IMG/VR virus record: IMGVR_UViG_3300047319_000243
Source: an uncultured virus (IMG/VR IMGVR_UViG_3300047319_000243)
Taxonomy: Duplodnaviria; Heunggongvirae; Uroviricota; Caudoviricetes
Strand: one strand, 5' to 3'
Length of the DNA: 64,000 nucleotides
Both the position numbers and the translations under genes were made by a program. Positions 3,325 to 49,353 of this stretch are shown in pieces. Within the stretch, counting starts at the first letter, position 1; each line of letters begins with the position of its first letter. The notes under the pieces were generated by a model. That model had not been told where the DNA came from. It ran no database searches and saw only the letters and a list, made by a program, of their open reading frames with translations.

Positions 3325-4016
3325 AGCCGTACGCATGGAGCCATAGCGCGCTGTCCTCGTTCGACACCTGCCCGCGCCAGTACGAAGAGATCAAGGTACT
3401 GCGTAACTTTCAGGACACGACGAACGCGGCGGCGCTGTGGGGCGATGAGTTCCACAAGGCGGCCGAGACGTACATCAAGGCGAAGTGTGGGCTTGGCGAA
3501 GCATCGCTGCCGGCCAACATGTTGATGTATGACGAGTACCTTTTGCCGTTCGCCACGCGTCCCGGCAACACGTTGGTAGAGCAGAAGTACGCACTCACGC
3601 AGCAACTTGCACCTTGTTCGTTCTACGACAAGAATGTGTGGTGCCGGGGCATCGTCGACGTGCTGACGATCAACGGCCACGTGGCGCATGTGGATGACCA
3701 CAAGACGGGGAAGAACCGTAAGAAGGACATGCAGCAGCTGATCATCTTCGCGCTGCTGACCTTCTACCATCACCCCGAGGTCGACACGTGCCACACGGCG
3801 TTTCACTGGCTGCAGCATGGGTTCGGTGAGACGGCGAAGGATCGCGAGACGTTCTATCGGCATCAGATTCCGCAGCTGTGGGAATCGTTGCTGCCGAAGC
3901 TGCAGCGGTACAAGGCGGCGTTTCAGAACGGGGTGTTCCCGCCGAAGCCGAGCGGGCTGTGCAGGAAGCACTGCGCGGTGCAGACGTGTGAGTACGTTGG
4001 CAGTGGGCGTCGATGA
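3321..4016 (+). CDS. PD-(D/E)XK exonuclease (Cas4/RecB-like)
   Basis: WSHSAL..F.TCPR, G.EFH, GIVD...DHKTG, C-terminal C..C..C cluster. Confidence 0.85.
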   Translation: MKPYAWSHSALSSFDTCPRQYEEIKVLRNFQDTTNAAALWGDEFHKAAETYIKAKCGLGEASLPANMLMYDEYLLPFATRPGNTLVEQKYALTQQLAPCSFYDKNVWCRGIVDVLTINGHVAHVDDHKTGKNRKKDMQQLIIFALLTFYHHPEVDTCHTAFHWLQHGFGETAKDRETFYRHQIPQLWESLLPKLQRYKAAFQNGVFPPKPSGLCRKHCAVQTCEYVGSGRR

Positions 4017-4300
4017 CGCCTGAAGGAAAAGTAAAGGCGAAGGTGAAGGCCCTCCTGAAGCAGTGGGGGGCTTACTTTCATATGCCAGTACAAAACGGGA
4101 TGGGCGAGCCGACGTTAGATTTCATCGCTTGCCTGAACGGTAGGTTCATTGCGATAGAGACCAAAGCACCGGGCAAGAAGCCGACGAAGCGGCAGGAAGT
4201 CACGATGGCTCAGATGCGCGCCGCTGGCGCGTTCGTGTTCGTCGTGTCCAATGACGCCGAGTTGGAAGTGCTCGGGGCATACCTCGCATTACTATCATGA
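4013..4300 (+). CDS. VRR-NUC domain nuclease (putative Holliday junction resolvase)
   Basis: TPEGKVK...G..LDFIAC..GRFIAIETKAPGKKPT.RQ. Confidence 0.9.
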   Translation: MTPEGKVKAKVKALLKQWGAYFHMPVQNGMGEPTLDFIACLNGRFIAIETKAPGKKPTKRQEVTMAQMRAAGAFVFVVSNDAELEVLGAYLALLS

Positions 4301-6347: not shown

Positions 6348-6901
6348 CAGAAGCACTTGATGTGATGCTCGATCTGGAGACGCTGGGCACGGAGCCGTTT
6401 GCGCCCGTGCTGTCTATCGGCGCATGCACGTTCTACTTGGGCGAGACGCCGAATGGTGTTGAGCCGATCGCCGACACGTTCTATCAGGCGGTCGACATCG
6501 AGAGTTCGATCACGCTCGGCATGCGCCCGTCCGGTGCCACGCTGAAGTGGTGGGTGAACCAGTCGGCCGATGCGCGCGCGGTGTTCCAAGACCCGGCCGC
6601 ATGCTCGCTGCCCGACGCGCTCGACGCGTTCACGGACTGGCTGAACAGCCGCCCGGTGCAGGTGTGGGGCAACTCCGCGCGCTTCGACTGCGGCCTGCTC
6701 GCGGCAGCGTACAAGGCGTGCAGTAAAGAACTGCCGTGGATGTTCTGGAATGAGCGCTGCTATCGCACGGCGAAGAACCTGCCGGGCGCGAGCAGCGTGG
6801 CTATGCAGCGGATGGGGACGCACCACAACGCGTTGGATGATGCGGTCTCACAGGCGATGCACCTGCGTGGCATCTACAGCGCGCTGGGATTGAAGGCGTA
6901 G
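6344..6901 (+). CDS. DEDDh 3'-5' exo(ribo)nuclease
   Basis: MLDLETLG, WGNSARFD, HNALDDA motifs. Confidence 0.9.
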   Translation: MTEALDVMLDLETLGTEPFAPVLSIGACTFYLGETPNGVEPIADTFYQAVDIESSITLGMRPSGATLKWWVNQSADARAVFQDPAACSLPDALDAFTDWLNSRPVQVWGNSARFDCGLLAAAYKACSKELPWMFWNERCYRTAKNLPGASSVAMQRMGTHHNALDDAVSQAMHLRGIYSALGLKA

Positions 6902-8634: not shown

Positions 8635-11538
8635 ATGAATACGCGTGATTTCCTGCAGCTGCTGACCCCCCGTTCGGGGGCGATCTTTATCGCCACGCCC
8701 AGTGCGCAAGGCGGTTGGGTCAACATCCCTCATCGGTCGCTGGATAAAGCCGTCGATCTCGTCAACCAGTTGACGTTCGAGAACCGGCCCGCGTATTTCT
8801 CGATGGCCGGGTACGACAAGGATAAATATTTCGACGACGCGGCGCAGAAGTGGCGGCGTCGCACGCAGGCCAACGCCCGCGCAATCCGGTCGTTCTTCCT
8901 CGATCTGGACGTGAAGCCGGGCGACCCGCTGTGCTTCGACTCCAAGGATCAGGCGTGCCAAAGCCTCAAGGCGTTTGTGAAGAAGGTCGGCCTGCCCCGG
9001 CCGCTCATCGTCGACTCCGGCGGCGGCATCCACGCGTACTGGCCGCTCGTGCAGGACGTGACCACCGCGGAGTGGAAGCCGATCGCTGAGCAGTTCAAGG
9101 CGATCTGCGTGCACGAGCAGTTCAATGCCGACCGTAGTCTCACCTCCGACGAGGCGCGCGTGCTGCGCGTGCTCGGCAGCTACAACGTCAAGCGCAGCGC
9201 GCCGGTCTCGTTGATGGTCCCGCCCCCGCCCCCGATCGCGTTCGAGGACTTCGCTCAGCGCATCACGGGATACGCGGGCCTCCACGGCGTCGCCACAACC
9301 GCAGGTAGGTCGAAGGTCGGCACCCTCGGTTCCGGCCCGGCTGTGGACGTGTGGGGGGCTGGCGACAACCTCGGCGCGACCAACGACCCGCTGAACTTCG
9401 ACCGCATCGTGTTCCACTGCCCTCAGCTGCAGGCGCAGGCCGGCGCGCGCGGGCGCGACTCCGGTGAACAGCTGTGGCGTGCTGGCCTCGGCATCGTCAA
9501 GTTCTGCGAACAGCAGGCGGCCGCCGCGCGCGTGATCTCCGATGGCCACCCTGACTTTGACGCACAACGCACTGCGCAGAAGATCATCAACTGGAACGCT
9601 GGGCCGACGAAGTGCACGCACTTCCACCAGCTGAATCCTTCCACGTGCGAGTCCTGCCCGCACTGGGGCAAGCTCACGTCGCCCGCGCAGCTGGGCCGCC
9701 AGATCATCGACACCCCTGCCCCGCCCATGCAGATCACGGTGCCGCCCGCGCCGGACGCGATCGACCAGACGCCTGTCACGATCACCCTCACCCGCCCGGA
9801 GTTCCCCACGGGCTACTCGCGGCGCGCCGATGGCGCGGTGGTGCGCGAGCACGAGGATCAGGACGGCAAGCCGACATTCGAGACCATCTGCCCGTACGAC
9901 CTTTACCCGCTCGCGATCCGCAGCCAGAACGGCACGGACACCGAGATCGACGAGCACAGCATGTGGCGTGCGCACCTGCCGCTCAAGCGCGGCGCAGGCA
10001 CGGAGCCGCGCGACTTCGCGGTGCCGCTCGGACTGTTGGCCGACCAGCGTGGATTGTCCAAGCTGTTGTTCAGCAAGGGCGTCGTGCTGTCGGGGGATCA
10101 ACCGAAGTTCACCCAACTCTATATGTCTGCCTACCTGCAAAAGCTGGCCAAGGAAGCCGGGCGCGATCAGCTGTACGAGCGCCTTGGCTGGCATGATGGT
10201 CACGAGACGTTCGTGCTCGGCGACCGTGTGATCCACCGCGACGGCACCAGCACGCCGCACACCGCGAGCGACGCGATCCGCGCGACCACCAAGAACGGCC
10301 TCAAGACGGCGGGCACGCTCGCCGGCTGGCAGCAGGCCATGCAGTTCTTCAACCGGCCCGGCTACGAGGGGCATCGCTTCTTCCTCTATGCCTCGTTCGG
10401 CTCGCCGCTTTTCCACATGAACGACACCGGCAACAAGGGCGCGATGCTCGCGGCCGGCGGCGCATCCGGGCGCGGCAAGACGACTTGCCTGAAAGCCTGC
10501 TCGTCCGTGTGGGGTTCGCCCGAGGCGCTGGTGGTCAACGGCAACCGCGAAGGCGCAACCACCAACGCGCTGTACAGCACGCTCGGCACGGTGCATTCCC
10601 TGCCCTTCCTGCTCGACGACATCACCGAGCGCGACAGTGACGAACTGCGCCGCCTTGCACTGAATATCAGCCAAGGCGAAGGCAAGCGCCGCATGCAGGC
10701 CGATGGCACGATGGTGGGCCGTCTGGACACGTGGGCGAACCTCACGCTGACCTCCACGAACGCCGACACGCTTACGTCGCTCATGTCCACCGGCAAGGAC
10801 GTGGACCCCCACCTCATGCGGGTGGTGAGCGTGGAATTCGCGCTCGTCGATGCGCGCGCCGACGCGAAGATCGAAGCCGACCGTTTCATCCGCGCCATGG
10901 GGCAGAATTATGGCCACGCGGGCGCGCTCTTTATGCGCTATATTGCTCAGCACTACGAACAAGTGCGCAAGCTCTACATTCGCAACGTCGAGAAGGTCGA
11001 CCGCCTGTTGGCTTCGCGCAACGCCTCGGCCGAGCGCTACTGGTCCGCAGTCGTCGCCGCCGCGTACACCGCCGCGCAGATCGCCAGCAAGGCCGGCATT
11101 CTCGACTTCCCGTTCGAGGACGACCTGAAGTGGATGATCGCGCTGCTCACGCGCCAACGCGAATCGATTCGTGAGGCTGGCTCGACGCCGGTCGAACTGC
11201 TGACCCAGTTCCTCGACGGCCACGTGCGCAACACGCTGGCGCTGTCGCCCAAGGGCGCAACGAATCTGGACAACATCGTGATCAAGCCGTTCGACGAGTT
11301 GATGATCCGGCACGAACTGGACACCGACACGATCTACGTCTCGCGCACGGCGGTCATGGCGTACTGCGCGGAGCACCGCACGAGCTTCCGCGTGTTCGAG
11401 GCGAATCTGGAGCGCGACGGCGTGCTGGCCAAGCGCAATGCACAAAAGGTTCTCGGTGCCGACACCGTGTATTCGAAAGGGCAAACGCGTTGCTGGATGA
11501 TCAGCGGCGCGACCCTGCGTTCAACGACTGGAATTTGA
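8635..11538 (+). CDS. Primase-helicase (primase N-terminus, DUF927 domain, P-loop helicase)
   Basis: FFLDLD, SGGGIHAYW primase motifs; LGWHDG; GASGRGKT Walker A; LLDD Walker B. Confidence 0.9.
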   Translation: MNTRDFLQLLTPRSGAIFIATPSAQGGWVNIPHRSLDKAVDLVNQLTFENRPAYFSMAGYDKDKYFDDAAQKWRRRTQANARAIRSFFLDLDVKPGDPLCFDSKDQACQSLKAFVKKVGLPRPLIVDSGGGIHAYWPLVQDVTTAEWKPIAEQFKAICVHEQFNADRSLTSDEARVLRVLGSYNVKRSAPVSLMVPPPPPIAFEDFAQRITGYAGLHGVATTAGRSKVGTLGSGPAVDVWGAGDNLGATNDPLNFDRIVFHCPQLQAQAGARGRDSGEQLWRAGLGIVKFCEQQAAAARVISDGHPDFDAQRTAQKIINWNAGPTKCTHFHQLNPSTCESCPHWGKLTSPAQLGRQIIDTPAPPMQITVPPAPDAIDQTPVTITLTRPEFPTGYSRRADGAVVREHEDQDGKPTFETICPYDLYPLAIRSQNGTDTEIDEHSMWRAHLPLKRGAGTEPRDFAVPLGLLADQRGLSKLLFSKGVVLSGDQPKFTQLYMSAYLQKLAKEAGRDQLYERLGWHDGHETFVLGDRVIHRDGTSTPHTASDAIRATTKNGLKTAGTLAGWQQAMQFFNRPGYEGHRFFLYASFGSPLFHMNDTGNKGAMLAAGGASGRGKTTCLKACSSVWGSPEALVVNGNREGATTNALYSTLGTVHSLPFLLDDITERDSDELRRLALNISQGEGKRRMQADGTMVGRLDTWANLTLTSTNADTLTSLMSTGKDVDPHLMRVVSVEFALVDARADAKIEADRFIRAMGQNYGHAGALFMRYIAQHYEQVRKLYIRNVEKVDRLLASRNASAERYWSAVVAAAYTAAQIASKAGILDFPFEDDLKWMIALLTRQRESIREAGSTPVELLTQFLDGHVRNTLALSPKGATNLDNIVIKPFDELMIRHELDTDTIYVSRTAVMAYCAEHRTSFRVFEANLERDGVLAKRNAQKVLGADTVYSKGQTRCWMISGATLRSTTGI

Positions 11539-11539
11539 C

Positions 11540-11812
11540 ATGGACATTAACGCCACCCTCGCCGAGCGCGGCGCGCGCTACGGTGACTTCGCAACCCACG
11601 CGGCGATCTGCCAGCGGATCAAGGAGTCCATGTGGAGGAACCCCGGCTGGTCGCGGCTCGCGCCCGACCAAGCGCAGGCGCTTGAGACCATCGCCGACAA
11701 GATCGCGCGCATGCTCAACGGCGACCCCAACTATCACGACAATTGGCACGACATCGTTGGCTACGCCAAGCTCGTCGCCGATCGGCTCGCCACCCGCGCC
11801 GACCCGTCATAA
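11540..11812 (+). CDS. DUF6378-like phage protein
   Basis: LAERGARYGDF...KIARMLNGDP...DNWHDIVGYA. Confidence 0.8.
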   Translation: MDINATLAERGARYGDFATHAAICQRIKESMWRNPGWSRLAPDQAQALETIADKIARMLNGDPNYHDNWHDIVGYAKLVADRLATRADPS

Positions 11813-11860
11813 CGAAATCCTCCTGAGTTGACGACAGCGGCGCTCAACGCGGCGGTGAAC

Positions 11861-11952
11861 CCCCGGCAACCGCGCCCAAAGCCTTGCTGCATATCGTGAG
11901 CGCCCTACCGGCTTCGGCCGGTAGTGTTATGCGATAAGCGAGGCGGCCGGGG
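11861..11952 (+). ncRNA. Candidate structured RNA: nested long hairpin capped by cUUCGg
   Basis: CCCCGGC/GCCGGGG, GCCTTGCT/AGCGAGGC, GCATA/TATGC and CTACCGGC-TTCG-GCCGGTAG pair in nested order. Confidence 0.4.
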
Positions 11953-11973
11953 AACCTTCCTTACATTCCTCCT

Positions 11974-12000
11974 GCTGTACGTACGTACAGCCGTACGTAC
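11974..12000. promoter_or_regulatory. GTAC-repeat palindrome upstream of parA (candidate centromere/operator)
   Basis: Perfect 18-bp palindrome GCTGTACGTACGTACAGC followed by CGTACGTAC. Confidence 0.45.
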
Positions 12001-12086
12001 AAGTTGCGTGCGGTCCCACACGTAAGACACCTTGTAACTATTCCCTACTGTAACTATGCTGGAGGCTCCTACTTGGAGACTACAAC

Positions 12087-12740
12087 ATGGTTATAACGAT
12101 TGCCAACCCGAAGGGTGGCGTGGGGAAAAGCGTGCTGGCTACGAACATCGCCGCAATAGCCGCCGCCCGTGGGCATAGCGTGACGTTCTTCGATACGGAC
12201 GTTCAGCGGAGTGGCGGCAAGTGGTGCGATCAGCGCAGAAACCTCGGCATCCGACCGCGCATCGACCTGCTCATCCCGAAAGACGACCTGTTCGACGAGT
12301 TGCAGGCGGCATCGCAGAGCAGCGATGTGGTCGTCGTGGACGTCAAGGGTACGGGCGGCCCTGCGCTGACTATTGCGGCTGGTTTGGCGGACCTCGTGGT
12401 GGTCCCGGTGATTCCCGGACAGTTCGAGGTATGGGCGCTCGACGACGCGGCCGACCTGATAGAGAGCCTGCGTGCCACGGGCGCGGGCTTCCGGTGCCGT
12501 GCCGTGATCAACAACGCGCCGACCACGCGTAACAGCCGCGACGTGCGCACCGTTACGGCCGCGCTGAAGGCGTACAAGCATTTCTTCGAGCCGTGCGACA
12601 CGGTGATCTTCGGGCGGCAGGTATTCAAGGACGCGTTGAGCGTCGGCCTGTCGGTGATCGAAATGGATGGCGGCGCACGCGACGTGAAGGCCACCGAGAA
12701 CATCAATACGTTTTTCAACGAGGCAATCAGCAATGGCTAA
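12087..12740 (+). CDS. parA: ParA partition ATPase (short, type Ib-like)
   Basis: Deviant Walker A KGGVGKS, DTDVQRS, VVVD, ADLVVVP. Confidence 0.93.
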   Translation: MVITIANPKGGVGKSVLATNIAAIAAARGHSVTFFDTDVQRSGGKWCDQRRNLGIRPRIDLLIPKDDLFDELQAASQSSDVVVVDVKGTGGPALTIAAGLADLVVVPVIPGQFEVWALDDAADLIESLRATGAGFRCRAVINNAPTTRNSRDVRTVTAALKAYKHFFEPCDTVIFGRQVFKDALSVGLSVIEMDGGARDVKATENINTFFNEAISNG

Positions 12741-13119
12741 GACACCCACACCCGGCATCCAACTCGGCGCGCGCGCCGCGCAACCGCCCGTCGACCGAGA
12801 CAAGCTGCTGGCCGCCGCACACAACGCCGAGCAGCCCAGTGTGGTGCCCGCGCCGCAACCCGTTCGACTGACAACCCCGCCGCCGGCCGAGCGCGCCGCG
12901 GAGCCGAAGGGGCGGACGATCGTATCGGTCGACGACTTGAGGGGCTTCGTGAAGAAGCGCGAGCCGCGCGTACCCATGACGATCCGCGTGCCGGTCAGCC
13001 TGTTCGACGATCTCCAGATGATCCAAAAGTTCGGGGGAAAGACGATGACCGACGTGCTGGTGGAGTCCGCCGCGCCTGTCGTTGCCGAACTCATGAAACG
13101 GATTGGGCAGAAAACATGA
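12733..13119 (+). CDS. Putative centromere-binding partner of ParA (C-terminal ribbon-helix-helix-like)
   Basis: Overlaps the parA stop; disordered N-terminus; PMTIRVPVSLFDDLQ...TMTDVL RHH-like pattern. Confidence 0.7.
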   Translation: MAKTPTPGIQLGARAAQPPVDRDKLLAAAHNAEQPSVVPAPQPVRLTTPPPAERAAEPKGRTIVSVDDLRGFVKKREPRVPMTIRVPVSLFDDLQMIQKFGGKTMTDVLVESAAPVVAELMKRIGQKT

Positions 13120-13709
13120 CCGAAGCCGAGACCACCGAGAAGGATGAGCTAGACGCCGACCTGCGCTGGCTCCACGTGTTCCACTCCATGATCGCCACGG
13201 GGGCACTGGCGAAAATGACGCCGTACGGGCTGGCGGTGTACATCGTGGTCAAGTACCACATCAACATCGCGGATGACCCCGACAAGTTCCCGACGATCGA
13301 TGTGATCGCCAAGGGCGCAGGTATGAGCGAGCGGAAGGTGAAAGACATGCTCAATCACCTAGAGTCGATGGGGTATCTCAAGCGAGCGCGGACGCAGGGC
13401 GGCAAACCGAACACGTACCAGCTGACGGAGCACGTACCGATAATGAAAAACGGGGAACCATACGCCAAGGCCGATTTCTCCCACCTGCCGTTCGAATGGC
13501 AAAAGCCGGTGGATGAACTGAAGGCGCTGCTTAAAAGCGGCGACCTCGACGGCAAACACATCCATCTGCACATTACGTTCAACCAGTTCAACGACCAGTC
13601 CACGCAGAACAACGCCGAAATGATCTTCAACGCGTTGAAAGACCCACAGCTGGCCGAGGCGATGCGCAAGCTGATCGAGAACCGCTCAGCGAAAGTCGCG
13701 GGCCTGTGA
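13116..13709 (+). CDS. Winged-HTH plasmid-type replication initiator (putative)
   Basis: LAVYIVVK...FPTIDVIAKGAGMSERKV...LESMGYL...NTY (HTH_36-like); followed directly by origin-like DNA. Confidence 0.7.
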   Translation: MTEAETTEKDELDADLRWLHVFHSMIATGALAKMTPYGLAVYIVVKYHINIADDPDKFPTIDVIAKGAGMSERKVKDMLNHLESMGYLKRARTQGGKPNTYQLTEHVPIMKNGEPYAKADFSHLPFEWQKPVDELKALLKSGDLDGKHIHLHITFNQFNDQSTQNNAEMIFNALKDPQLAEAMRKLIENRSAKVAGL

Positions 13710-13880
13710 ATAACTTTATCCACAGTCTATTCGTATGAGTGCACAAAATGCCCCTACCCCTATTCTTCATAGGGCATATTGTGCACCCTGCGGAGGGGGG
13801 TAAGGTGCGTTTTGTGCACTTACGAAGCCCCCTCTATATATAGGTTTACACTCTTTTTATACTTACAAGCTTTAAAGGGA
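13705..13880. other. Putative plasmid replication origin
   Basis: Inverted DnaA boxes TGTGAATAA (13705-13713) and TTATCCACA (13716-13724); three GTGCACAAWAYGC repeats (one forward, two reverse, about 13739-13820); AT-rich tract about 13833-13880. Confidence 0.7.
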
Positions 13881-13925
13881 AAATCGGTTGTAGAATTCCT
13901 TCCGACCAAAACAGACCGATCGGTA

Positions 13926-14159
13926 ATGATTCTCTACGGGCAGGGCTATCGTCTGCGATTCATCGATAGGATGCTGCACCACTATGGCTGGATCAGGCGC
14001 ATGGTGGTCATGGATTACTTCGGCCTGTCGCAGCCGCAGGCCAGCGTCGATCTGCAGGCGTACATCAAGCTCGCACCCCACAACGTCGTGTACAACAAGA
14101 CGACGAAGCAGTACGAGTCCACGCCCGAGTTCGAACGCATCTTCAGCGATCTGCCATGA
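13926..14159 (+). CDS. Stand-alone CapW/BrxR-like N-terminal winged-HTH protein (no WYL domain)
   Basis: RLRFID..L..YG.I.R...MDYFGLSQPQASVDLQAY...APHNVVYNKTTKQY....F pattern; start moved to ATG 13926. Confidence 0.75.
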   Translation: MILYGQGYRLRFIDRMLHHYGWIRRMVVMDYFGLSQPQASVDLQAYIKLAPHNVVYNKTTKQYESTPEFERIFSDLP

Positions 14160-14386
14160 TCTGGCCATTCTGGAAGCTGTGCACGTTAATCGTCGTCGGC
14201 GAAACCCTCGCGATCGGGGTGAACGTCTGGACGCTGTGCGACCACTGGAATGATCCATGGTGGTCGTTCGTGCCGAGGGCGATCAACCTCGCCTTGCTCT
14301 GCGGTGCGGCTACGATGGCTGGCTTGATGCTCGGGCGCGCTTACCGGATGGACAGGGAGCACAAGCTACCGAAGAAGAACCAATGA
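14156..14386 (+). CDS. Small membrane protein, two hydrophobic segments
   Basis: ATGA coupling with the upstream gene; hydrophobic stretches. Confidence 0.65.
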   Translation: MIWPFWKLCTLIVVGETLAIGVNVWTLCDHWNDPWWSFVPRAINLALLCGAATMAGLMLGRAYRMDREHKLPKKNQ

Positions 14387-15018
14387 AGAAGCACTATCCG
14401 GTGACGCCCGGTGGCACGATCGTCACGTGGCTGGCCAGCGACACGGCCGATGAGGCATGGGCGAAGCTGTTGGCGGATGCGAGCCACATGCCCTACAAGA
14501 CGAAGGCTGAATTCAAGCTGCGCGGCTACAGCGTGAAGCAGATGGACGCCGCACTCGCCACGGACAAGCCGCCGATGAACTACAAGTTTTCGGATGAACT
14601 ACAAGTTTTCGAACAGCCGATGAGCGCGCTACTAATCGGCCCCCACGAGCGCAAGCAGATCGCGCAGCTGGTCGCGGCGGCGCAAGAGAAACCGGTGAAC
14701 ATGGTCGGCATCACGGAGCGGCTGAAGCTGCCCAAACTGAAGGCCGCGCACATGACGCAGATGACGGCGCAGACAATCGACATCCCCGCCGGCTTCATGG
14801 TGACGTTCAGTTTTGAGACTGGCCACCCGTGCGGGCTATGCCGGCACCTGAGTATCAGCCGCAGCAACAACCGGCTCCCGCATCCGCAGGCAGCATTCAT
14901 GATCGCCCAAGAGTTCGGCTTTTGGGGCGATGACCTCACCTCGCTCGATGGCGTATGGGTCGAGAACTTGAAGGGCCACGGCGATGCGGTCAACCTCGTG
15001 CAGCGCGTGGCCCACTGA
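14383..15018 (+). CDS. Hypothetical protein
   Basis: ATGA-coupled start (MKKHYP); C-terminal RHLSIS...RLP motif. Confidence 0.7.
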   Translation: MKKHYPVTPGGTIVTWLASDTADEAWAKLLADASHMPYKTKAEFKLRGYSVKQMDAALATDKPPMNYKFSDELQVFEQPMSALLIGPHERKQIAQLVAAAQEKPVNMVGITERLKLPKLKAAHMTQMTAQTIDIPAGFMVTFSFETGHPCGLCRHLSISRSNNRLPHPQAAFMIAQEFGFWGDDLTSLDGVWVENLKGHGDAVNLVQRVAH

Positions 15019-15019
15019 C

Positions 15020-15442
15020 TTACTTCGTGAGACCCTTTTTCTTTTCCCAGCTGCGCGACAACGTGTAGCCGCAGTACGCCGTGCCGAAGGTGCCCCACAT
15101 GGCGTCAGGGATCGCAGCAAGCCACGCCTTCATGCCGTTGGCGATCGCGAGGCCGGCGGCCGGCGAGACAGCCGAGCAGATGCCCATGGGCACCGCGCAG
15201 AGGATCAGGATGTACATGACGTACATGAACGACGGCCGGGCGCGTGAAGTCCACGGGTCCGACGACTGAGCCTCGGCGAGCATCACGCTCATGTTCTGCT
15301 TCAACTCAGCGAGCGCGGCATCGGCCTGCGCCTTCATGAGCGTGGCCTCGGCCGTGGCCTTCGCCTGCGGGTCCGGCCAAATCTTGTTCATCCCATCGTC
15401 GAGCAGCTTGGCCACGCCCGAGATCGCGTCGTCGATGATCAC
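15020..15442 (-). CDS. Holin-like protein (GTA 3TM-holin family)
   Basis: AEAQS.DPWTSRARP..MY, TM segments, RSWEK; adjacent to the endolysin. Confidence 0.8.
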   Translation of the reverse strand: MIIDDAISGVAKLLDDGMNKIWPDPQAKATAEATLMKAQADAALAELKQNMSVMLAEAQSSDPWTSRARPSFMYVMYILILCAVPMGICSAVSPAAGLAIANGMKAWLAAIPDAMWGTFGTAYCGYTLSRSWEKKKGLTK

Positions 15443-15951
15443 GACAGCCTCCCACCAGCAGCGATAAACACGTTGGTCAATGCCTGCATCGTGGCTTGAC
15501 GCTGGCCGTAGTTATTGCCCGGCAGCGAGGCCCAAATGTTCGAGCAGCGCGCGACGGCGTTGCCGAGGTTGCCCGCGATGATGTCGGGGATCGCGCCGCG
15601 TTCCTTGATCAGCTGCAGGCACCAGCGATCTTGCGCGCCCGGCCCGAAGTCGGGGAGGTGCAGCAGATCGCGGTAGTGCGCCCAGTCCTTCAGCATGAAC
15701 TGATACCTGCCGCTGGCGTTCGACGTGAGGCCCTTGCTGTTGACCACGATCGACGGACGGCCGCCCGCGAACGGGTGCTGCGCGTAGTCGTCGAAACGGT
15801 GCTTGCCGTCGACGCCGGAGACGATCACATCGTAGCCGTTGTTCTTCGTGATGGGACTCGACGAAGTGCCCTCAGCTGCAGCACTCGCCAACATGTCCAT
15901 GAACGCGCAAATGTTCTGACCACCCAAGGCGGTCGCCGACATAACAGGCAT
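15439..15951 (-). CDS. Endolysin, lambda-R-like lytic transglycosylase
   Basis: EGT...GYDVIV...ASGRYQF...DFGPGAQD...WASLPG.NYGQ. Confidence 0.92.
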   Translation of the reverse strand: MPVMSATALGGQNICAFMDMLASAAAEGTSSSPITKNNGYDVIVSGVDGKHRFDDYAQHPFAGGRPSIVVNSKGLTSNASGRYQFMLKDWAHYRDLLHLPDFGPGAQDRWCLQLIKERGAIPDIIAGNLGNAVARCSNIWASLPGNNYGQRQATMQALTNVFIAAGGRLS

Positions 15952-22430: not shown

Positions 22431-25400
22431 TTATTGCTTCGTGGGCATCGCCGCGTAACCCAGCTGTTCCTTGGCTACAGGCATCTGGCGCTTGGTGACT
22501 GCGATGCCGAGACCCGCGCCGAGGGCGTTCTCCGTGAGGTGGCGGCGCACGATGCTCGACAGATCGGTGATCGCCTGCGTCGGGTTCGCGCGGTTGTAAT
22601 CGCCGACCATTTCGAGCGCGTTCGTCATGTCGCCCGGGTCTTTCGACTGCGTGGCCTTGAACACCCGATCGCCAATGATCTCGCGGCGATGCTGCAAGAT
22701 TTGCTGGTTCTCGGAGAACTCATGCGCCGCTTCGTCGCGCGTCGCCTTCTCGGCCGTGCGGAAGCCGGCCGCCTGCAGGCCGATGTCCCATGCGCCTGCG
22801 TCGTTGAGCGGGGCCGGCAGCTTGTTGCCCTTGGCGTCGGTGTAGCCGCCGGGGCCGATCGCGCCCGCGAGTTCCGCCGCCTTGTAATACGGCTTGATAC
22901 CCGAGGGCAGCATGTTCTCCAGCCCCTTGATGTAGTTGCCTTCCATCATCGTATGCGCGCCGAGGCCCACATCGATCAAGCCGTTGAGCGCCGGGCCGAG
23001 CAGCTGCTGCGACTGCTCGCCGATCTTGTCCTTCAGCTGCGCGCGCGAGGCGAGGAATTCGCTGCCGGGCAGCAGGTTTTCGAGGCCGAAGGTCGAGGTG
23101 TCCATGTTGATCAGCGACCCCGCGCCGTGCGCAATGAAGTCGCCCGTGCCTTGCCCGAACGTGTTCGTCAGGAAGTTGCGGAAGTCGCCGCGGATATCGC
23201 TCGGGTCGTCGTTGTCTTTCATCAACGTGTTGTAGACACCCGCGAACGCATTGGCGAACGGCAGGCCGAGCGCGCCGGAAATCGCGAAGGTCGCCGCCAT
23301 CAGGCCGCCGAACTCGCGGCGCGACTCCTTGATGCGCTGCTGGCCCTCGGGCGTGCTCTTGTCCTTGGCGAAATAGCCGTCCTGCACCGTGCGCACGATC
23401 TGCTGCATCGTCTGCAAGTTGTAATTCATGAAGCTCGTGAACAGCGGCGTGGACCTGCCGGCGAACCCGAACTTGCCGATCTGGCGTGCGGTGTTGTCCG
23501 GGTCGAAGTTGTCCATCGCGTTGTTGATCGCTTCGTGCGCCCAGTCGGTCGCGCCGTTCACGTCCATCGGCCGGAAGCCCTTGGAGCCGGCGCGCGCCAT
23601 GCGATAGGCCGCGAGGCCAACGGTCAAGCGGTTGGTCATTTCGGCGTACTGCGCCGACATCGAGGCGAGGCGCGCCATGTCCTGCTGACGCTGCGTGGAG
23701 CCTTCCATCGCGTGCTGCAGCTGCTGCGCTTGGCCGAGCTTGAGCACGCCGCGATCGTGCATTTCCTGAACGAATGCCTTGTCCTCGGGGTTCAGGCCCG
23801 GCATGTTGTCGAACTTCATGCCGGTGCTCATGACGCCGTGGATGCCATCAGCACCCCAGCCTGCCGCGATCGAGTTGCGGATCACGTTCATCGCGGTGCC
23901 AGTGGCCTTCGCCATTTCCTTCGCCGCGCCGACGAAGCCGTAGCGTGCACCGAGGATCGGCACCCCCCGATGGTAGGGTTGCGCCATCGTGCGAATGAAG
24001 AAAGCGGGCGACACAGCCAGATAGAAGCTATGGCCGAACGAGTTCAGCATGTTGATGTGCGTGTTGTCCACACGCGTCATGCCGTTCTGGTAGCGCTTGT
24101 TGATCTCGCCCGAGACCATCGTTGCGCGCGCCGCTGCGTCGCCATCCGCACCGCGATTCATCAACTCGTTGGAGGATTTCATATCCCTCAGCGATTGAGC
24201 GAACTGGCGGTTGGTGTACGCGTTGCTCAAGTCCTGCACGGTGCCGCTCGCGCGGCGCGCGAAGTTGCCGACGAAATCGCCGTCGTAACCGGGCACGCCC
24301 TTGCGTTCCATCTTCGCGCTGCGGCCCGCCGTCTCCGGCAGCATCGAGAGCAGCTGGCGCGTGATGTTCTGTTTGACGGCCATCTGTTGCTCGGGCGTAA
24401 GCGACGTGTCGATGTTCGCATTGTCGTGCAGCGAGCGCTCCAGCTGACGCAGGGCAGGGGTGATGCCCGCCGCGCCCTGCATGTCGTTGATCGTGAGCAT
24501 GCCACGGCTCGACTGCGGCACGTCGATCACGTCAGCGCCGCCGGCCTTCACGAGCTTGTCGAACAGGCCCTGCGCCTGATCGAGCGAGTCCACGCGGAAA
24601 AACGCGTTTTTCTGATCGCGCAGATTGCCCAGCACCTTGTTCGAACCGCCGAGCGCCTGCTCCAGCTTCGCCTGCACGGCCGGCGTGATCTGCGCGCCGT
24701 CCTTGAACTTGATGTTGACGTAGTGATCGCCGTCGCGGCCGAGCGAGAAGTACGGGGCCTTGGTCTGCGCGTAATACATGCGCTTGATCTCAGCGAGGCC
24801 GTTCTGCAGCGGGGAACCCTCGGGCAAGTCCTTCGCCTCGGTGAACATGTCGCGCACGCGCTGGTCGAGCGCCGACGCAGCGCCGTCCAGATGCAGATCG
24901 GCGTTGGCGTTCGTCGCACCCTGCAACGACTTGTCCATGAAGTCCATCAGCGGCATGTGCTTGGCCGCGAAATCGGACTGCGCACGCGCGAGGGCCAGCT
25001 GGTTCTCCAGACGCGCGCGGGCTTCGTCGCCCGGCTGCAGGCGCGCGATCTCCGCTTCGAGACGCGGCACCACGCCCGTGTGCACGCTCATCAGGTTCGA
25101 CGAGATCGAGGCCACCGTCTGCACGTACGTCTTGCGGTTCTGCTGCGCGCCTTCGATGAGCGTTTTCTGCAACGGCTCGGGCAGCTGACGGAACTCGCGA
25201 TGGATCGCGTTCACGTAGTCGGCGTTGGCCCCCAGTGCCTTGTCGATCTTGAGGTTGTCGGCGTAATTCTTCGTGAAGTCGAAGCCGTTGATCGACGCCT
25301 CGCCCGCGATGCGCATGAGCTTGAGGTTGAACGCCTTGGCGTCCTTCGTCGCACGCAGCGCCGCCTTGGCGCGCTCGCTGTACTCGCCGAGCGACTGGCT

Positions 25401-28400
25401 CAGCTGCTCAGCCACGACACGGCGCGCGTCGCGCGCGGCGCGGTAGCCGTCAACCGCTTTAGCGAAACCAGACTCGACCATGGCCGGCGTCGTGCGCACT
25501 TGATGCGCAATGAAGTCGACGGTTTTCCAGCCTAGCATCTTTTGGAAGAGGCCCCGGTTCGCGGTCGGCAGCTTGTCGGTGATGCGCTCGATGTGATCGG
25601 CCGCGCTCGCCATGGAGTGCAGCACTTGGTCCGTCGAGTGGAGCGCGCCAGCCGGAGACGAGTCGAAATCGCGCTGCATCTTGGCCACGTCGAAATACTC
25701 GTCGTTGAGGCTCATGGCGCGGTCGAAGAACGAAGCGGCCGGGGCCGGCTTGCCGGTTGCGCCGAACAGCTTCTTGACGAAATCCACAGCACGTTGCCAC
25801 AGCGACTTGGGCGCGGCGTTGCCTTCGGCGGCCGGCACGGTGTCCTTCAGGAACTGCTGGAACGACGGGTTCGAGTTGAGTTCCGCGAGGAATTCGTGGT
25901 TGTTCGTGAGGCCGTACTCGTGCGCGTACTTGTCGGCCGACGCGTGCAGGATCACCTCGTTGCGCAGCGCTTCGAGTTCCTGCCCCATACGCAGCATGCG
26001 CGCTTCAAATTGGGACTTGGGCACGTAGCCGCGCGCGACGGCCTGCCGCAGACCATCCGCGAAGTTGATCAGGTGCGCCTGCGCCGCGTGCGTCGCCTCG
26101 TGCAGCAGGGTCGATTCGGTCATGCCGCGACGGAACAGATCGATCGCGTCGTGCGCGGGCGTGTACTGGCCGAGCGTGTCCACGTCCCTCGGGTGATCCA
26201 TGTCACCGTGCCCCATGATCTTCGTGGGCAGGTTCAGGCTCTGCAGGAACTTGGCGTACGTGCGCACCCAGCCCTTCGAACCGTTCTCGGCGAGGTTGCC
26301 CAGCACGTCATGCAGCTTGCCCTCAACGTGTTGACCGCCGATCGAGTCGAGCAGGTTCGGGTTCGTCTGGCCCGGCAGGTTCGAACGGCTCGCAAGCGTC
26401 TCGCCGGTCTGGCCATCGAGCGCGTCGCGGCCATACTCCAGCATGCCGTCGATGTAGTCGTTCGCGCGCTTGCTGCCGTCGCTCATGTCCTTGAACTTGC
26501 GGCCCGTCATGTCCTTGAACGCGTTGAGCAGCGACTGCACGTGCGTAGCGTGTTCGGCCTGCTCGGGCGTGAGCGTGCCCTTAGCCGCGTACTCATCGGC
26601 CACGGACTTGAGCGCGTCGCGCATGTCGAACGCTTGCTCGATGGGCTTCTTCCCGGTGTTGTCGGGCAGGGTGGCCATCACGCGCGCGGTGCCGGCGGGC
26701 GGCGGCGTATCGAGCGGGCTTGCGATCGGCTTAGCGGGTTCTGCCGGGGCTTCCGGGGGGTTCGCCTTAGCGCGCGAGTCTTGCAGATTGTCGAGGCGCT
26801 TCTGCTGGTCGGCCTGCATCCGCCCCCAATCGGCCTCGCTCATGTGGTCGGGGCGGCCTTCCTCCGCGCTCCGCTTTACCGCCGCTTCGGACTGAGCGAT
26901 CTGCTCATCCAGAAACCGGTTGTACACATCGCGCACTGCCGGATCGCGGCGCGCGCGGCCTTCCCATGCCGCCTCGCCTGCCTCGGTCAAGATGCTGCTC
27001 GGCTTCAACGGCCCCACGCTCTCGCCGTAGTGGTCGTACATGGCTGACGCGACGCCTTGGCGCTTCCAGTCATCGTGCGTGCCGACCCATGCCGCGAAAG
27101 CATTAGGATCGCCATGATTGAACTCCGTGGACAACTCACCGATCTCGTTACCGGCCTCGTCGCGCGCGACAATTCGGCCCTCGTTCGGGTCGTACTCGGT
27201 TGTGTACTTGCGTCCGTCCTTCGTGGCGCGCTGCGCGATGTCGGTGACAGGCACGCGCGGGTTCGGGCCTTGCGCGACGGGCAGTTGGTTCGCCTTGTAG
27301 CCCTCTGCGGGCGCGGCCGGTTCCTCGGCCTTCGGCATCGCTTCCTTCCACTGGTCGGAGAGCGCCTGCAGGCGGTCGCGCGTGGCTTGCCCCAACTTCT
27401 TGTCGGATTGCAGCAGGCCATCCACCGCGTCGATCTGCTCTTGATGCGATGCCATCTTGTCGATGCCGAGCGCGTCCAGTTGCTTCTGCACCGGGATCAG
27501 CGCCTGCTTCTTGATCGTGTCGTCGCCCGTCACCGCCTTGTTCGCTGCGGTGATGTCGCTCGTGATCTCGTCGGCGGCCTTCGGCGCGTTCGCCTCGCGC
27601 GGCGCGGGCGTGGCAGTTTCAGGCGGTGTTTCTGCTTTCGCCTCAACAGGTTGCGCGCTGGTCCCCTCATTCGTGGGGGTAGCAGCGGCCGGCGCTTCGG
27701 TCTGCTCGGGGTACAGCTGGTTCGCGCGCTCCTGCACCGTGAGTTCGCGCTCGTGGCCGTTCGCGGCGTCCTGCGCCCACACGCCAGACGGCGCGTTGAA
27801 CGCGGCCTCGGCGTCGGCCTTGGCGGCGTCGGTCTGCTTCTTCGTCGGCTTGCGCGAGTCGGCACCCGTCAACTGGTTGATGAATGCCTGCGTCGACATC
27901 GCGGGCGGCGTCTGCGGCAGCTGCACCGCTTCGGCCGGCGCGGCGGGCGCGCTCAGGTCGAGTTGACCCTGATCACCAGTTTGCTCGGGCGCGGCCGGCT
28001 GCTCGAACAGATCGCCCTGATTCGGGTTCTCGGCAGGAGCCTCGCGCATGCCGCCACCGCCGAACATGTCGCCTTGCTCGCCCGGTTGCAGCGGCGCACC
28101 AGCTTCGGCCGCCGGGGGCGCGCCAAACATTTCGCGCTGGCCATCGGTGTACTGCGGACCCTGAATCGAGTCCGGCGTGAACAGGCTCGCGTCGATCGGC
28201 AGCGGATTGTTTTCGCGGATCGCGTTCTCAGCGTTCTGGCGGAACGCGGCGGCGGCATTCGGATCGGCCTTGGCGAGTGCTGCGGCGTACTGATCCGCCA
28301 GCTGCCCACGAATCTCAGGCGTCGCTTCCGTACCTGCCAACATGTCGGCGCGTGACTTCGCGTTGCGCACGGCGAGCGCCTTGCCCGCGAGACCGAGCGG

Positions 28401-29228
28401 CGACATCACGGCCGTCAGCCCCAGCATCGGGCCGATCTGCGACTTCATGGCGTCCCACGGACTCGTGTCATCCACGCCATAGTGGTTCTCGATCGCCGCG
28501 CTCGTGCCGGCCTGCGCCATGCCCAAACCAACGTTCTCCGCGGCGAGGCCCGGCAGCGCCTTGGCGACCGGCGCGAGAATGCCGTCCCGCCCCGCCAGCT
28601 GCCCGAGGATACCCTCGGCCGTCGTCGTGCCTTCGATACCCACCATCTTGCCGAGCGCCGTGCCAGCGCCGCCGAGCAGGCGACCACCGACCATGCCCAT
28701 CGCCGTCTGACCCGCGAACGTCGCGCCCGCGTTGAGCGCGGCGGCCTGCCGAGCCGTCGCATCATCGACACCCTTGGCCTTCGCTTTCTCCAACGTGTCT
28801 TGGCCGGCGGCACCACCACCCATCGCGCCGAGCGCCGCAGCACCGACCGCCGTAGCAGCAAGAGCAGGCGCGCCGAGCGTCGCAGCACCCGCACCGATCG
28901 CCATCGCCGGTGCCGCGCCCGCCGCGATCTCACCGCCTTGCGCCAAGTTATTGACGAGCCAGCCATGCTGTTCCGGCTGCAGCTGCAGGCCGGGCTTCGC
29001 GCCCATGCCCTCGCCGAACTGGCGCACCGCGCCCCCGACGTTATCCGCGCCCGCGTATTGCAGCGCCTTACCCGCCATCGTCGGGAGGTCTACGAGCGCG
29101 CCGCGCGCGATACCCGTGCCGATTTCGCCGAGCGCGCCGCGCGCGGGCGGCGGTGCGACTTCCTGCGCAGTGCTCGGGTCGAACTGGCCGTCAACAGGTT
29201 GAGCGGTGCTCGGGTCGAAGTTAGCCAT
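22431..29228 (-). CDS. Large internal virion (ejection/polyvalent) protein with GNAT-like and HExxH domains
   Basis: About 2265 aa from MANFDPST; KRQGVASAMY GNAT motif A; LLHEATH; YFSLGRDG (PLxRFG-like). Confidence 0.85.
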   Translation of the reverse strand: MANFDPSTAQPVDGQFDPSTAQEVAPPPARGALGEIGTGIARGALVDLPTMAGKALQYAGADNVGGAVRQFGEGMGAKPGLQLQPEQHGWLVNNLAQGGEIAAGAAPAMAIGAGAATLGAPALAATAVGAAALGAMGGGAAGQDTLEKAKAKGVDDATARQAAALNAGATFAGQTAMGMVGGRLLGGAGTALGKMVGIEGTTTAEGILGQLAGRDGILAPVAKALPGLAAENVGLGMAQAGTSAAIENHYGVDDTSPWDAMKSQIGPMLGLTAVMSPLGLAGKALAVRNAKSRADMLAGTEATPEIRGQLADQYAAALAKADPNAAAAFRQNAENAIRENNPLPIDASLFTPDSIQGPQYTDGQREMFGAPPAAEAGAPLQPGEQGDMFGGGGMREAPAENPNQGDLFEQPAAPEQTGDQGQLDLSAPAAPAEAVQLPQTPPAMSTQAFINQLTGADSRKPTKKQTDAAKADAEAAFNAPSGVWAQDAANGHERELTVQERANQLYPEQTEAPAAATPTNEGTSAQPVEAKAETPPETATPAPREANAPKAADEITSDITAANKAVTGDDTIKKQALIPVQKQLDALGIDKMASHQEQIDAVDGLLQSDKKLGQATRDRLQALSDQWKEAMPKAEEPAAPAEGYKANQLPVAQGPNPRVPVTDIAQRATKDGRKYTTEYDPNEGRIVARDEAGNEIGELSTEFNHGDPNAFAAWVGTHDDWKRQGVASAMYDHYGESVGPLKPSSILTEAGEAAWEGRARRDPAVRDVYNRFLDEQIAQSEAAVKRSAEEGRPDHMSEADWGRMQADQQKRLDNLQDSRAKANPPEAPAEPAKPIASPLDTPPPAGTARVMATLPDNTGKKPIEQAFDMRDALKSVADEYAAKGTLTPEQAEHATHVQSLLNAFKDMTGRKFKDMSDGSKRANDYIDGMLEYGRDALDGQTGETLASRSNLPGQTNPNLLDSIGGQHVEGKLHDVLGNLAENGSKGWVRTYAKFLQSLNLPTKIMGHGDMDHPRDVDTLGQYTPAHDAIDLFRRGMTESTLLHEATHAAQAHLINFADGLRQAVARGYVPKSQFEARMLRMGQELEALRNEVILHASADKYAHEYGLTNNHEFLAELNSNPSFQQFLKDTVPAAEGNAAPKSLWQRAVDFVKKLFGATGKPAPAASFFDRAMSLNDEYFDVAKMQRDFDSSPAGALHSTDQVLHSMASAADHIERITDKLPTANRGLFQKMLGWKTVDFIAHQVRTTPAMVESGFAKAVDGYRAARDARRVVAEQLSQSLGEYSERAKAALRATKDAKAFNLKLMRIAGEASINGFDFTKNYADNLKIDKALGANADYVNAIHREFRQLPEPLQKTLIEGAQQNRKTYVQTVASISSNLMSVHTGVVPRLEAEIARLQPGDEARARLENQLALARAQSDFAAKHMPLMDFMDKSLQGATNANADLHLDGAASALDQRVRDMFTEAKDLPEGSPLQNGLAEIKRMYYAQTKAPYFSLGRDGDHYVNIKFKDGAQITPAVQAKLEQALGGSNKVLGNLRDQKNAFFRVDSLDQAQGLFDKLVKAGGADVIDVPQSSRGMLTINDMQGAAGITPALRQLERSLHDNANIDTSLTPEQQMAVKQNITRQLLSMLPETAGRSAKMERKGVPGYDGDFVGNFARRASGTVQDLSNAYTNRQFAQSLRDMKSSNELMNRGADGDAAARATMVSGEINKRYQNGMTRVDNTHINMLNSFGHSFYLAVSPAFFIRTMAQPYHRGVPILGARYGFVGAAKEMAKATGTAMNVIRNSIAAGWGADGIHGVMSTGMKFDNMPGLNPEDKAFVQEMHDRGVLKLGQAQQLQHAMEGSTQRQQDMARLASMSAQYAEMTNRLTVGLAAYRMARAGSKGFRPMDVNGATDWAHEAINNAMDNFDPDNTARQIGKFGFAGRSTPLFTSFMNYNLQTMQQIVRTVQDGYFAKDKSTPEGQQRIKESRREFGGLMAATFAISGALGLPFANAFAGVYNTLMKDNDDPSDIRGDFRNFLTNTFGQGTGDFIAHGAGSLINMDTSTFGLENLLPGSEFLASRAQLKDKIGEQSQQLLGPALNGLIDVGLGAHTMMEGNYIKGLENMLPSGIKPYYKAAELAGAIGPGGYTDAKGNKLPAPLNDAGAWDIGLQAAGFRTAEKATRDEAAHEFSENQQILQHRREIIGDRVFKATQSKDPGDMTNALEMVGDYNRANPTQAITDLSSIVRRHLTENALGAGLGIAVTKRQMPVAKEQLGYAAMPTKQ

Positions 29229-29230
29229 TA

Positions 29231-48011: not shown

Positions 48012-48298
48012 TACGCGGGAATCCTAACTAATTTGCGCCAAGCATATAGCAACACGGCCCCGCCGGGAAGTGTAAGTAAGAGGAATTTTTGGGGTGAGGT
48101 TTTTCGGGGGCGCGCGGTGGGTGGCTTAGTTTCTCGTCTGAGTGTAACTAAGTGGTTTTTGGCCGGATTCTATATGCGGGGCCATGGACGCGCTACCCCC
48201 CGGGCGTGCCTGAAACCCCCCCGGGGGGTGTCCGCTGGGGGAAAAGAATTACTGCCCGGCGGCGCGCGTGGCGCACGGCGCGCGGGCGTCAGGGCCGT

Positions 48299-48327
48299 TT
48301 GATATACAACGTGTTGTCAGGTAAATT
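48299..48327 (+). promoter_or_regulatory. Sigma70-like promoter for the early region
   Basis: TTGATA-17-TAAATT with ACAACGTGTTGT in the spacer. Confidence 0.5.
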
Positions 48328-49289: not shown

Positions 49290-49299
49290 AGTAACCCTC

Positions 49300-49328
49300 G
49301 GACAAACGGAGTTGCCCTCCGTTTGTCC
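49300..49328. repeat. 29-bp palindromic element, copy 2
   Basis: GGACAAACGGAG-ttgcc-CTCCGTTTGTCC. Confidence 0.95.
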
Positions 49329-49353
49329 CTCAACGAGTTGAAAGGAAAACGCC

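Follow-up and report, generated by a model that had tools for sequence, protein, structure and literature searches.

Of the switches that control defence islands in bacteria, the WYL-domain repressors CapW and BrxR are understood best. CapW (7TB6 from S. maltophilia, 7TB5 from P. aeruginosa PA17 and 9C5G from R. leguminosarum) is a repressor of CBASS operons with the architecture wHTH-WYL-WCX, and BrxR (7T8K/7T8L from Acinetobacter and 7QFZ from E. fergusonii) is a WYL repressor that controls BREX as well as further defence islands. A passage of PMC11662680 assigns residues 1-70 of R. leguminosarum CapW to the winged helix-turn-helix (wHTH), residues 71-136 to the linker and residues 137-193 to the WYL domain. 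The sites bound by BrxR and CapW are described, in passages of PMC9122589 and PMC9122601, as inverted repeats of 10-11 bp with a 5-bp spacer, near the promoter of the regulator itself. Here, we describe a 77-aa phage protein that matches the first domain of these repressors and that had been put forward, in an initial annotation, as a candidate super-repressor of host defence operons. No publication describing stand-alone CapW/BrxR heads in phages was found in full-text literature searches, which covered chiefly the running text of papers.

Genome context and reading frame

The window, by which we mean the whole stretch of DNA analysed (about 64 kb, 62.7% G+C), is a phage sequence encoding a terminase, a major head protein, a holin, an endolysin, a DNA polymerase, a helicase and a primase, together with a 2274-aa ORF and a serine recombinase. 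The genes surrounding the 77-aa ORF, hereafter the CapW-head gene, are as follows:

8635-11538: DUF927 primase, upstream of the CapW head
12087..12740, + strand: ParA-type partition ATPase (CbiA, 1.4e-12; phrog_164, ParA-like, 1.2e-33)
12733-13119: 128-aa ORF with no family, overlapping the ParA gene
13116..13709, + strand: Rep-like wHTH protein of 197 aa, resembling phage replication initiators (O-like/DnaD-like; phrog_270, 1.3e-8)
13926..14159, + strand: CapW-head gene, 77 aa, ATG to TGA; stand-alone CapW/BrxR-type wHTH
14156..14386, + strand: hydrophobic small protein of 76 aa, coupled to the CapW head through an ATGA overlap
14383..15018, + strand: 211-aa protein, coupled through an ATGA overlap; last gene of the + strand block
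15020-15442: holin
15439-15951: endolysin

The ORF at 13926..14159 was confirmed on the + strand from ATG to TGA; a homologue with 84% identity opens with the same residues, in support of this ATG as the start. The protein sequence given in the initial annotation agreed with the translation at every residue it contained and lacked the final four (SDLP). Its coupling to the next gene was also borne out, as the stop codon of the CapW-head gene shares bases with the start of the 76-aa ORF in the ATGA at 14156-14159. The ATGA overlaps between the 77-aa, 76-aa and 211-aa ORFs indicate that the three genes are translationally coupled. The CapW-head gene, present in a single copy in this phage, is the first of this trio and lies beside the ParA/Rep-like module; the trio forms the end of the + strand block, where the 211-aa gene converges on the holin gene.

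For the 76-aa protein, searches of Pfam, PHROGs, PADLOC and NCBIfam assigned no family, a weak match to DUF6404 (E 0.012) falling under the cut-off. Likewise, the 211-aa protein had no family in Pfam, PHROGs, PADLOC or NCBIfam and no usable Atlas match; its homologues of about 140 aa span 60% of its length and are without a Pfam domain. PADLOC thus returned 0 families for the two proteins downstream of the CapW head, and it gave only weak, chance-level matches for the Rep-like protein upstream. The latter protein is assigned to phrog_270, a replication initiation protein, with a Pfam HTH_36 match (2.2e-4) under the cut-off.

No nucleotide-level relative of the region was found among cultured phages, where the best primase match was 28% identical and the Rep-like protein had one match, at 29% identity. 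Among the records searched, the nearest is a viral contig. Near-identical contigs were present in several rhizosphere metagenome runs, and the 77-aa ORF itself was identical on contigs from four other metagenome runs. A near-identical locus, L002, deviates at one base. The search of metagenome contigs found no close relative.

Fold, contact residues and missing sensor

The 77-aa protein is a stand-alone CapW/BrxR-type winged helix without the sensor. A phmmer search of the PDB gave five matches, all of them CapW or BrxR: CapW from S. maltophilia (7tb6, E 2.5e-12), from P. aeruginosa (7tb5, 3e-12) and from R. leguminosarum (7e-6), followed by two BrxR proteins (0.004-0.007). All five matches were confined to the N-terminal 70-90 residues of CapW or BrxR, the CapW alignment pairing residues 2-74 of the query with N-terminal residues 9-92. 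The AlphaFold2 model, built with 39 family members, reached a pLDDT of 93.3 and showed the topology H1-H2-H3-wing, with the following elements:

Helix H1: residues 4-20
Helix H2: residues 25-32
Recognition helix H3: residues 36-49
Wing strands: residues 54-57 and 62-65

In Foldseek, all 15 matches at E<=1e-3 were CapW or BrxR chains, and generic winged helices came next at E values of about 1e-2. The structural match to the CapW wHTH, on which the initial annotation had staked its assignment, was found in 7tb6, the best of these chains (TMq 0.95, rmsd 0.5 A, 74 columns).

The residues implicated in DNA binding are retained. According to a passage of PMC9122588, the R32A mutant and the S42/Q45/S47 triple mutant of S. 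maltophilia CapW were designed to disrupt DNA binding; in the phmmer alignment, R32, S42, Q45 and S47 fall on identical residues of the query (R25, S35, Q38 and S40, respectively). Among 39 short members of the family, R25 was present in 37, S35 in 34, Q38 in 29 and S40 in 25, with threonine at this last position in a further 12.

The C-terminus carries a conserved tail, F69-x-R71-x-F73, and the sequence ends F69-E-R71-I-F73-SDLP. The initial annotation had the protein ending where the WYL domain would start, which needs correction, because it actually stops at the boundary between wHTH and linker. The 77-aa protein had no Pfam WYL match, and no remnant of a linker, WYL or WCX domain was detected in any frame of the window when the C-terminal portions of 20 full-length relatives served as tblastn queries (best E 0.13). 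No match at E<=1 was obtained for the protein in Pfam, PHROGs, PADLOC or NCBIfam, libraries without a model of the N-domain; this blank is uninformative, since the full-length relatives match Pfam only in their WYL domain. The cluster to which the 77-aa protein belongs carries the precomputed label PF26109.1. Collectively, the phmmer, Foldseek and tblastn results upheld the assignment as a phage-borne, stand-alone CapW/BrxR-type wHTH lacking WYL. As a homologue of the first domain, the protein would work, at most, like the DNA-binding half of the CapW/BrxR repressors.

Distribution and phylogeny of the short forms

An exhaustive search at E<=1e-3 yielded 572 clusters, defined at 50% identity. 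Among the matches listed, the 31 that ranked highest were all of 170 aa or less, and the first full-length protein (287 aa) appeared at rank 32 with an E value of 2.3e-10. The short proteins have their own start and variable N-terminal leaders and stop just past the conserved F-x-R-x-[WFY] tail; under a loose pattern, the tail lay at the C-terminal end in 57 of 152 proteins. A pattern scan of viral contigs gave 104 relatives, and the 80 that were kept comprised 67 short forms (one cut by the contig end) and 13 full-length forms. Bacterial genomes, taken at one per species, gave 127 relatives, with 76 full-length, 3 short and 1 intermediate among the 80 kept. For plasmids, the best 40 of 390 matching records were almost all annotated as WYL domain-containing. 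Two of the three bacterial short genes adjoin Mu-type transposition genes or a serine recombinase.

The patterns used to collect the viral and bacterial sets required the S-x-P-Q-A motif, so that the agreement of the two groups in the recognition helix is in part a product of the selection. In an unbiased set of 39 short proteins, P37 was found in 22 and Q38 in 29.

To place the short forms among their relatives, a domain tree of 161 rows and 78 columns was computed by a quick method; its branches are long and only clustering is claimed from it. The short/full label required 3 changes on this tree versus a shuffled mean of 52.5 (0 of 500 shuffles as low), and the query belonged to a starred (95) group of 42 rows made up entirely of short forms. 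The depth of this clade, together with an identity of at most about 50% between short forms and any full-length protein, argues against recent capture of a host regulator. On these sequence comparisons, the short forms did not arise as a series of recent truncations; they constitute an old and conserved clade, carried mostly by phages.

Cultured phages contributed 3 tblastn matches in 50,697 records, the best, at 52.9%, being in Stenotrophomonas phage Sonora, whose copy is part of a run of small genes that carry no annotation. One family member is a fusion of a Cro/CI-type HTH (HTH_3, 1.7e-13) with a CapW head. No conserved partner gene was found among the neighbours of the short genes at the loci compared: 96 of 144 neighbours (144 of 196 candidates having been tested) were without a PHROG and were mostly unknown small proteins, and the named ones included recombinases, nucleases, a methyltransferase and Lar-like proteins.

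A gene that spans only the first domain of a known architecture might be a decaying, functionless remnant of a full-length regulator gene. We consider this extremely improbable, since dozens of 50%-identity short clusters share one end point, just past the F-x-R-x-[WFY] tail, and the short forms make their own clade. The lack of any WYL/WCX trace in the frames of the window and the identity of the ORF in contigs of four other metagenome runs also speak against decay.

Predicted homodimer

The CapW head is predicted to form a symmetric homodimer via helix 1 and helix 2. The two-copy prediction gave an ipSAE of 0.57 (0.58, 0.57 and 0.51 in the runs) versus 0.00 for the best of three controls. 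In calibration, 20 of 30 proteins with structures solved as pairs of one chain attained the ipSAE mark applied, as did 1 of 23 with single-chain structures. Contact agreement between the runs was at least 80%, with a partner pLDDT of at least 86. The dimer model suggested in the initial annotation was thus returned as a predicted homodimer, a pass that may stem from solved CapW/BrxR dimers already familiar to the model.

The predicted interface comprises residues 12, 15, 19-20, 24, 27 and 30-31 (helix 1/helix 2). These residues overlap the positions that best separate short from full-length forms:

Position 16: R in 95% of full-length forms; L or M in short forms
Position 19: W in 95% of full-length forms; H or V in short forms
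Position 20: D or E in 88% of full-length forms; Y in 69% of short forms
Position 27: D in 78% of full-length forms; A or H in short forms

We infer that the H1/H2 face, which would contact the partner's linker/WYL in full-length proteins, may have been reshaped in the short forms so that they associate with themselves. The same remodelling could be expected of a protein-level decoy, in which the free head would dock on the face of host CapW or BrxR that normally holds the wHTH or WYL of the partner and would thereby disturb the repressor. Such a decoy is very unlikely, as the remodelled face is predicted to self-associate and the DNA-contact residues, needless for a pure decoy, are strongly conserved in the short family.

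Operator of the full-length relatives

A common motif with the consensus GCGTATAnTTAnTATACGCATA was found upstream of 74 bacterial full-length genes, in the 200 nt before each; the consensus box, GCGTATA-N5-TATACGC, can be written out as GCGTATAnTTAnTATACGC. Within these 200 nt, the box was matched at 10 or more of 14 positions in 68 of the 74 genes versus 0 of 74 control stretches, and at 11 or more in 53 of 74 versus 8 of 1480 composition-matched shuffles; many of the full-length loci are related, so these counts are not independent, and several phyla are spanned. The E. coli CapW site, as quoted in a passage of PMC11662680, fits the box at 11 of 14 positions by our reading. The box was also present upstream of 7 of the 13 full-length genes on viral contigs.

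The full-length genes lie largely among defence genes. In a hand count covering the first 66 of 76 loci and 120 proteins, 47 of the 66 had a strong PADLOC match in an immediate neighbour. CBASS parts were found at 31 of these 47 loci and Wadjet JetA/B/D at 14, with both in three and other systems at 5; among the remaining full-length loci, seven had weak PADLOC matches only and 12 had none. A link of CapW/BrxR to Wadjet is already in print (discussion of PMC11662680).

None of 67 short genes had the box within -300..+50. The window contained one site matching at 11 of 14 positions, at 19403 inside a tail gene, for a chance expectation of 1.05-1.17, and the box count in three other phage genomes with short genes was at chance. 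Both the CapW-box consensus and its absence from the phage loci were worked out here.

Candidate sites in the phage

The 216-nt intergenic region upstream of the CapW head, lying between the Rep-like gene and the CapW-head gene, includes an AT-rich stretch and holds the following sites, neither of which is assigned to a strand:

13702..13727: candidate operator; an imperfect palindrome of 26 bp, AT-rich at its centre, with arms 9/10 and the core CTGTGAATAA-ct-TTATCCACAG
13739-13753 (inverted), 13772-13786 and 13805-13819 (direct): three copies of the 15-nt motif GGGCATWTTGTGCAC; candidate operator/iteron-like sites

The palindrome overlaps the stop codon of the Rep-like gene, and position 13726 (T>G) is the sole difference from the four other metagenome runs and L002, in which the palindrome is more symmetric. 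The direct copies of GGGCATWTTGTGCAC are spaced 33 nt apart, and the motif was found only at 13739..13819 within the window. The palindrome and repeats may serve as operators, or they may be bound by the Rep-like protein encoded next to them.

An upstream region of this kind fits self-regulation and forms a counterpoint to host targeting. In this main rival explanation, the CapW head would be a regulator of the phage's own genes with a specificity diverged from that of CapW, its dimer binding the palindrome at 13702-13727 and/or the GGGCATWTTGTGCAC repeats and auto-repressing the three-gene operon without a ligand. It would then resemble the Aca-type repressors, which act on accessory operons and whose gene promoters may lie more than 250 nt upstream. 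The position of the gene agrees with such a role, as it is the first of three coupled genes below a region with a palindrome and window-unique repeats. The age and phage residence of the clade, as well as the family member in which an HTH_3 (Cro/CI-type) domain is fused to a CapW head, point in the same direction. The published BrxR and CapW sites likewise lie near the regulator's own promoter, as described in PMC9122589 and PMC9122601.

The short genes as a group show no sign of adjacent operators. Palindromes of at least 9/10 within 250 nt upstream were present at 4 of 66 short genes versus 175 of 1658 control windows (10.6%), which is no enrichment, and no shared k-mer was found upstream of the short genes. 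At 36 of 62 short-gene loci, an upstream same-strand ORF lies 40 nt or less away (hand count). In this phage, a simple sigma-70 scan detected no promoter in 11700-15200, and the repeats could equally belong to the Rep-like protein. We regard regulation of the phage's own genes as a genuine possibility, albeit a doubtful one.

A further element, a 27-bp palindrome (11+5+11) of the form GACAAACGGAG-N5-CTCCGTTTGTC, occurs in 12 copies before early genes (chance 0) and has BrxR-like geometry. It is unlikely to be the operator of the CapW head, given that its equivalents in the complete related phage G002 have an 8-nt spacer and compensatory stem changes. This change of spacer with compensating stems led us to read the element as an RNA or ssDNA hairpin.

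The neighbourhood also raises the prospect of an accessory factor of a plasmid-type replication/partition module, which would bind the repeats and control origin firing, copy number or partition. The CapW-head gene is directly downstream of ParA, the 128-aa ORF and the Rep-like wHTH, and the interval that separates it from the Rep-like gene contains the three repeats and the AT-rich stretch. With regard to the features of an iteron-type origin, ParA is clear, the Rep-like protein has weak or PHROG-level matches, and GGGCATWTTGTGCAC is present in three copies, of which two are direct and one is inverted, so that they do not make up a phased array. Homologues of ParA, the 128-aa ORF and Rep197 were found beside no other short gene except at the near-identical L002, apart from one weak ParA match eight genes away. 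Moreover, in G002, whose primase is 66% identical, the CapW head belongs to another module and six classical iterons of 21-22 bp lie about 2 kb away from it. An accessory role in replication appears quite improbable on this evidence, and the repurposing for the adjacent plasmid origin suggested in the initial annotation found nothing specific beyond proximity to ParA, the Rep-like gene and the three repeats.

Possible mode of action

The best reading of these data, which we hold tentatively, is a ligand-blind repressor acting on host CapW boxes. The recognition surface of the CapW head matches that of the full-length 'PQAS-type' regulators, and on this basis the head would recognise the same operator, GCGTATA-N5-TATACGC. 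As the phage and the other short-gene loci are without this operator, the likeliest targets would be the CapW boxes of the host. Bound to promoters of CBASS, Wadjet and further defence islands, the dimer would have no ssDNA sensor and could keep a defence operon repressed after the host's own repressor had been released. The ParA/Rep-like neighbourhood might, as a conjecture, fit a role during plasmid-like carriage.

Several points temper this reading of a ligand-blind repressor. We infer that the half-site specificity of the CapW head would be unchanged, and the spacing of the recognition helices in the new dimer interface may not fit the 7-5-7 box. Furthermore, published work (abstract of PMC9122588) indicates that CBASS protects in a first infection even without induction through CapW, so that blocking induction may help an infecting phage little. 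The super-repressor proposed in the initial annotation thus keeps circumstantial support from the host operator, the retained contact residues and the lack of a phage operator, and loses ground through the old, separate clade and the dispensability of CBASS induction. A wider form of the idea is that the whole family serves phage and phage-plasmid counter-defence, ligand-blind dimers on the CapW box repressing CBASS, Wadjet and WYL islands, with the main job in this phage being to shield a plasmid-like prophage from the anti-plasmid system Wadjet. This wider form seems unlikely.

Comparison with known systems

A phage-borne DNA-binding head that has kept its contacts and shed its sensor is the simplest imaginable tool to jam a defence switch. 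One operator consensus that is common to host regulators across distant bacteria and absent from the phage copies provides a concrete handle on this question. If the heads regulate phage genes instead, they would relate the DNA-binding module of a defence regulator to a phage regulator family and would provide an example of a domain rebuilt to dimerise alone.

Like CapW, the phage head is a winged helix (42-43% identity, TMq 0.91-0.95, rmsd 0.5 A) with the recognition-helix motif S-x-P-Q-A-S-x-D and an arginine equivalent to R32; a dimer is predicted for the head. Unlike CapW, it is encoded by a phage, is without the linker, the WYL ssDNA sensor and the WCX dimerisation domain, and lies neither beside a defence operon nor near a CapW-type box. 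The near-invariant R16, W19 and D/E20 of full-length proteins are replaced by M16, H19 and Y20 in the phage head. With BrxR, the head shares the same fold (TMq 0.87-0.92), whereas the two are less alike in sequence (phmmer E 0.004-0.007 at 25-29% identity), the base-contacting motif S-R-Q-Q corresponds to S-Q-P-Q, and the linker, WYL and WCX are again missing. The CapW box derived here nevertheless has the geometry of the BrxR operators described in the published passages, namely 10-11-bp inverted repeats with a 5-bp spacer.

A repeated palindrome of the early genes and its counterpart in a relative

A 27-nt palindrome, GACAAACGGAG-N5-CTCCGTTTGTC, was found in 12 copies in the window, where none would be expected by chance.

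8208, 49301, 49512, 50346, 51273, 51949, 52018, 52930, 54178, 55118, 57224 and 60070: copies of the 27-nt palindrome

Most copies are positioned approximately 10 nt past a stop codon and 23-42 nt ahead of the next start, and most are followed by a conserved CAACGWGTTGAAAGGAG stretch; two of the 12 are situated inside called ORFs. Compensating changes in both arms were observed in one copy, and AA/TT changes confined to a single arm in three. Collectively, the palindrome looks like a lineage-specific intergenic hairpin of the early genes, acting as a terminator, processing site or promoter element.

Equivalent hairpins, GGACATTCCGG-N8-CCGGAATGTCC, precede early genes of G002, a complete related phage genome of 62.9 kb (the record of locus L010; also loci L163-L166) whose primase is 66% identical to that of the window phage.

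G002 44025-44054, 47612-47641 and 57116-57146: examples of these hairpins
G002 6651-6785: six direct repeats of TCCCAAACACCGG, spaced 21-22 bp apart

The six direct repeats are a classical iteron array, and the gene for the CapW head (the stand-alone CapW/BrxR-type winged helix) of G002 is located about 2 kb away from it.

Other features of the window, including a recombinase compatible with plasmid-like carriage

Three further features of the window were recorded.

11972-12002: perfect, GTAC-rich palindrome, TGTACGTACG-tacagc-CGTACGTACA, located upstream of parA at a distance of about 85 nt
53594-54169 (+): 191-aa serine recombinase/invertase (phrog_125, 1.3e-58)
22431-29258 (-): 2274-aa ORF in the structural block

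The palindrome upstream of parA is a candidate par operator or centromere-like site, and the serine recombinase/invertase, together with ParA, fits plasmid-like carriage. The last ~600 residues of the 2274-aa ORF match phrog_11358 (1.4e-34), a family of giant phage proteins of unknown function.

Separately, a gene-poor stretch of 2.2 kb (48012-50248) separates the two divergent gene blocks. Several perfect palindromes lie within it, including those at 48554-48580 and 49450-49474, and two copies of the unit TACCACCTCA-taatgtgt-GGAGGTGGTA are present, one at 50123 and one at 50233, where the next gene starts. The stretch possibly represents a control region or the genome ends.

Strain variation around the CapW-head operon

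Position 13726, within the 26-bp palindrome upstream of the CapW-head gene, is T in the window and G in contigs of all four other metagenome runs compared and in the viral locus L002; G renders the palindrome more symmetric. In one contig of run X4, 14592 is joined to 15021, and the 428 nt thus missing (14593-15020) comprise the greater part of the 211-aa gene. Run X4 additionally contains a diverged strain, whose 76-aa and 211-aa genes differ at many positions.

Neighbors and fusions of CapW-type regulators

A gene for a phrog_10171 protein adjoins the CapW-head gene in two loci.

L010 3648-3974: phrog_10171 protein, upstream of the CapW head (3971-4216)
L014 4295-4816: phrog_10171 protein

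The two genes of L010 share an ATGA overlap, and the C-terminus of the phrog_10171 protein (…TWTGQGGMPNWMKGK…) resembles an H-NS-type DNA-binding motif. Fusions were found among the family members as well: in P0007 (145 aa), residues 7-61 form a Cro/CI-type HTH (HTH_3, 1.7e-13) and residues 74-143 a CapW head, and in P0079 (253 aa) a CapW-type head comes after a JetD C-terminal domain (1.7e-28), an arrangement that may reflect read-through from a Wadjet gene into its regulator. Of 66 genes that encode full-length CapW-type regulators and have the conserved box (bacterial loci L084-L152), 14 are directly adjoined by Wadjet genes (JetA, JetB or JetD), and three of these 14 loci also contain CBASS parts.
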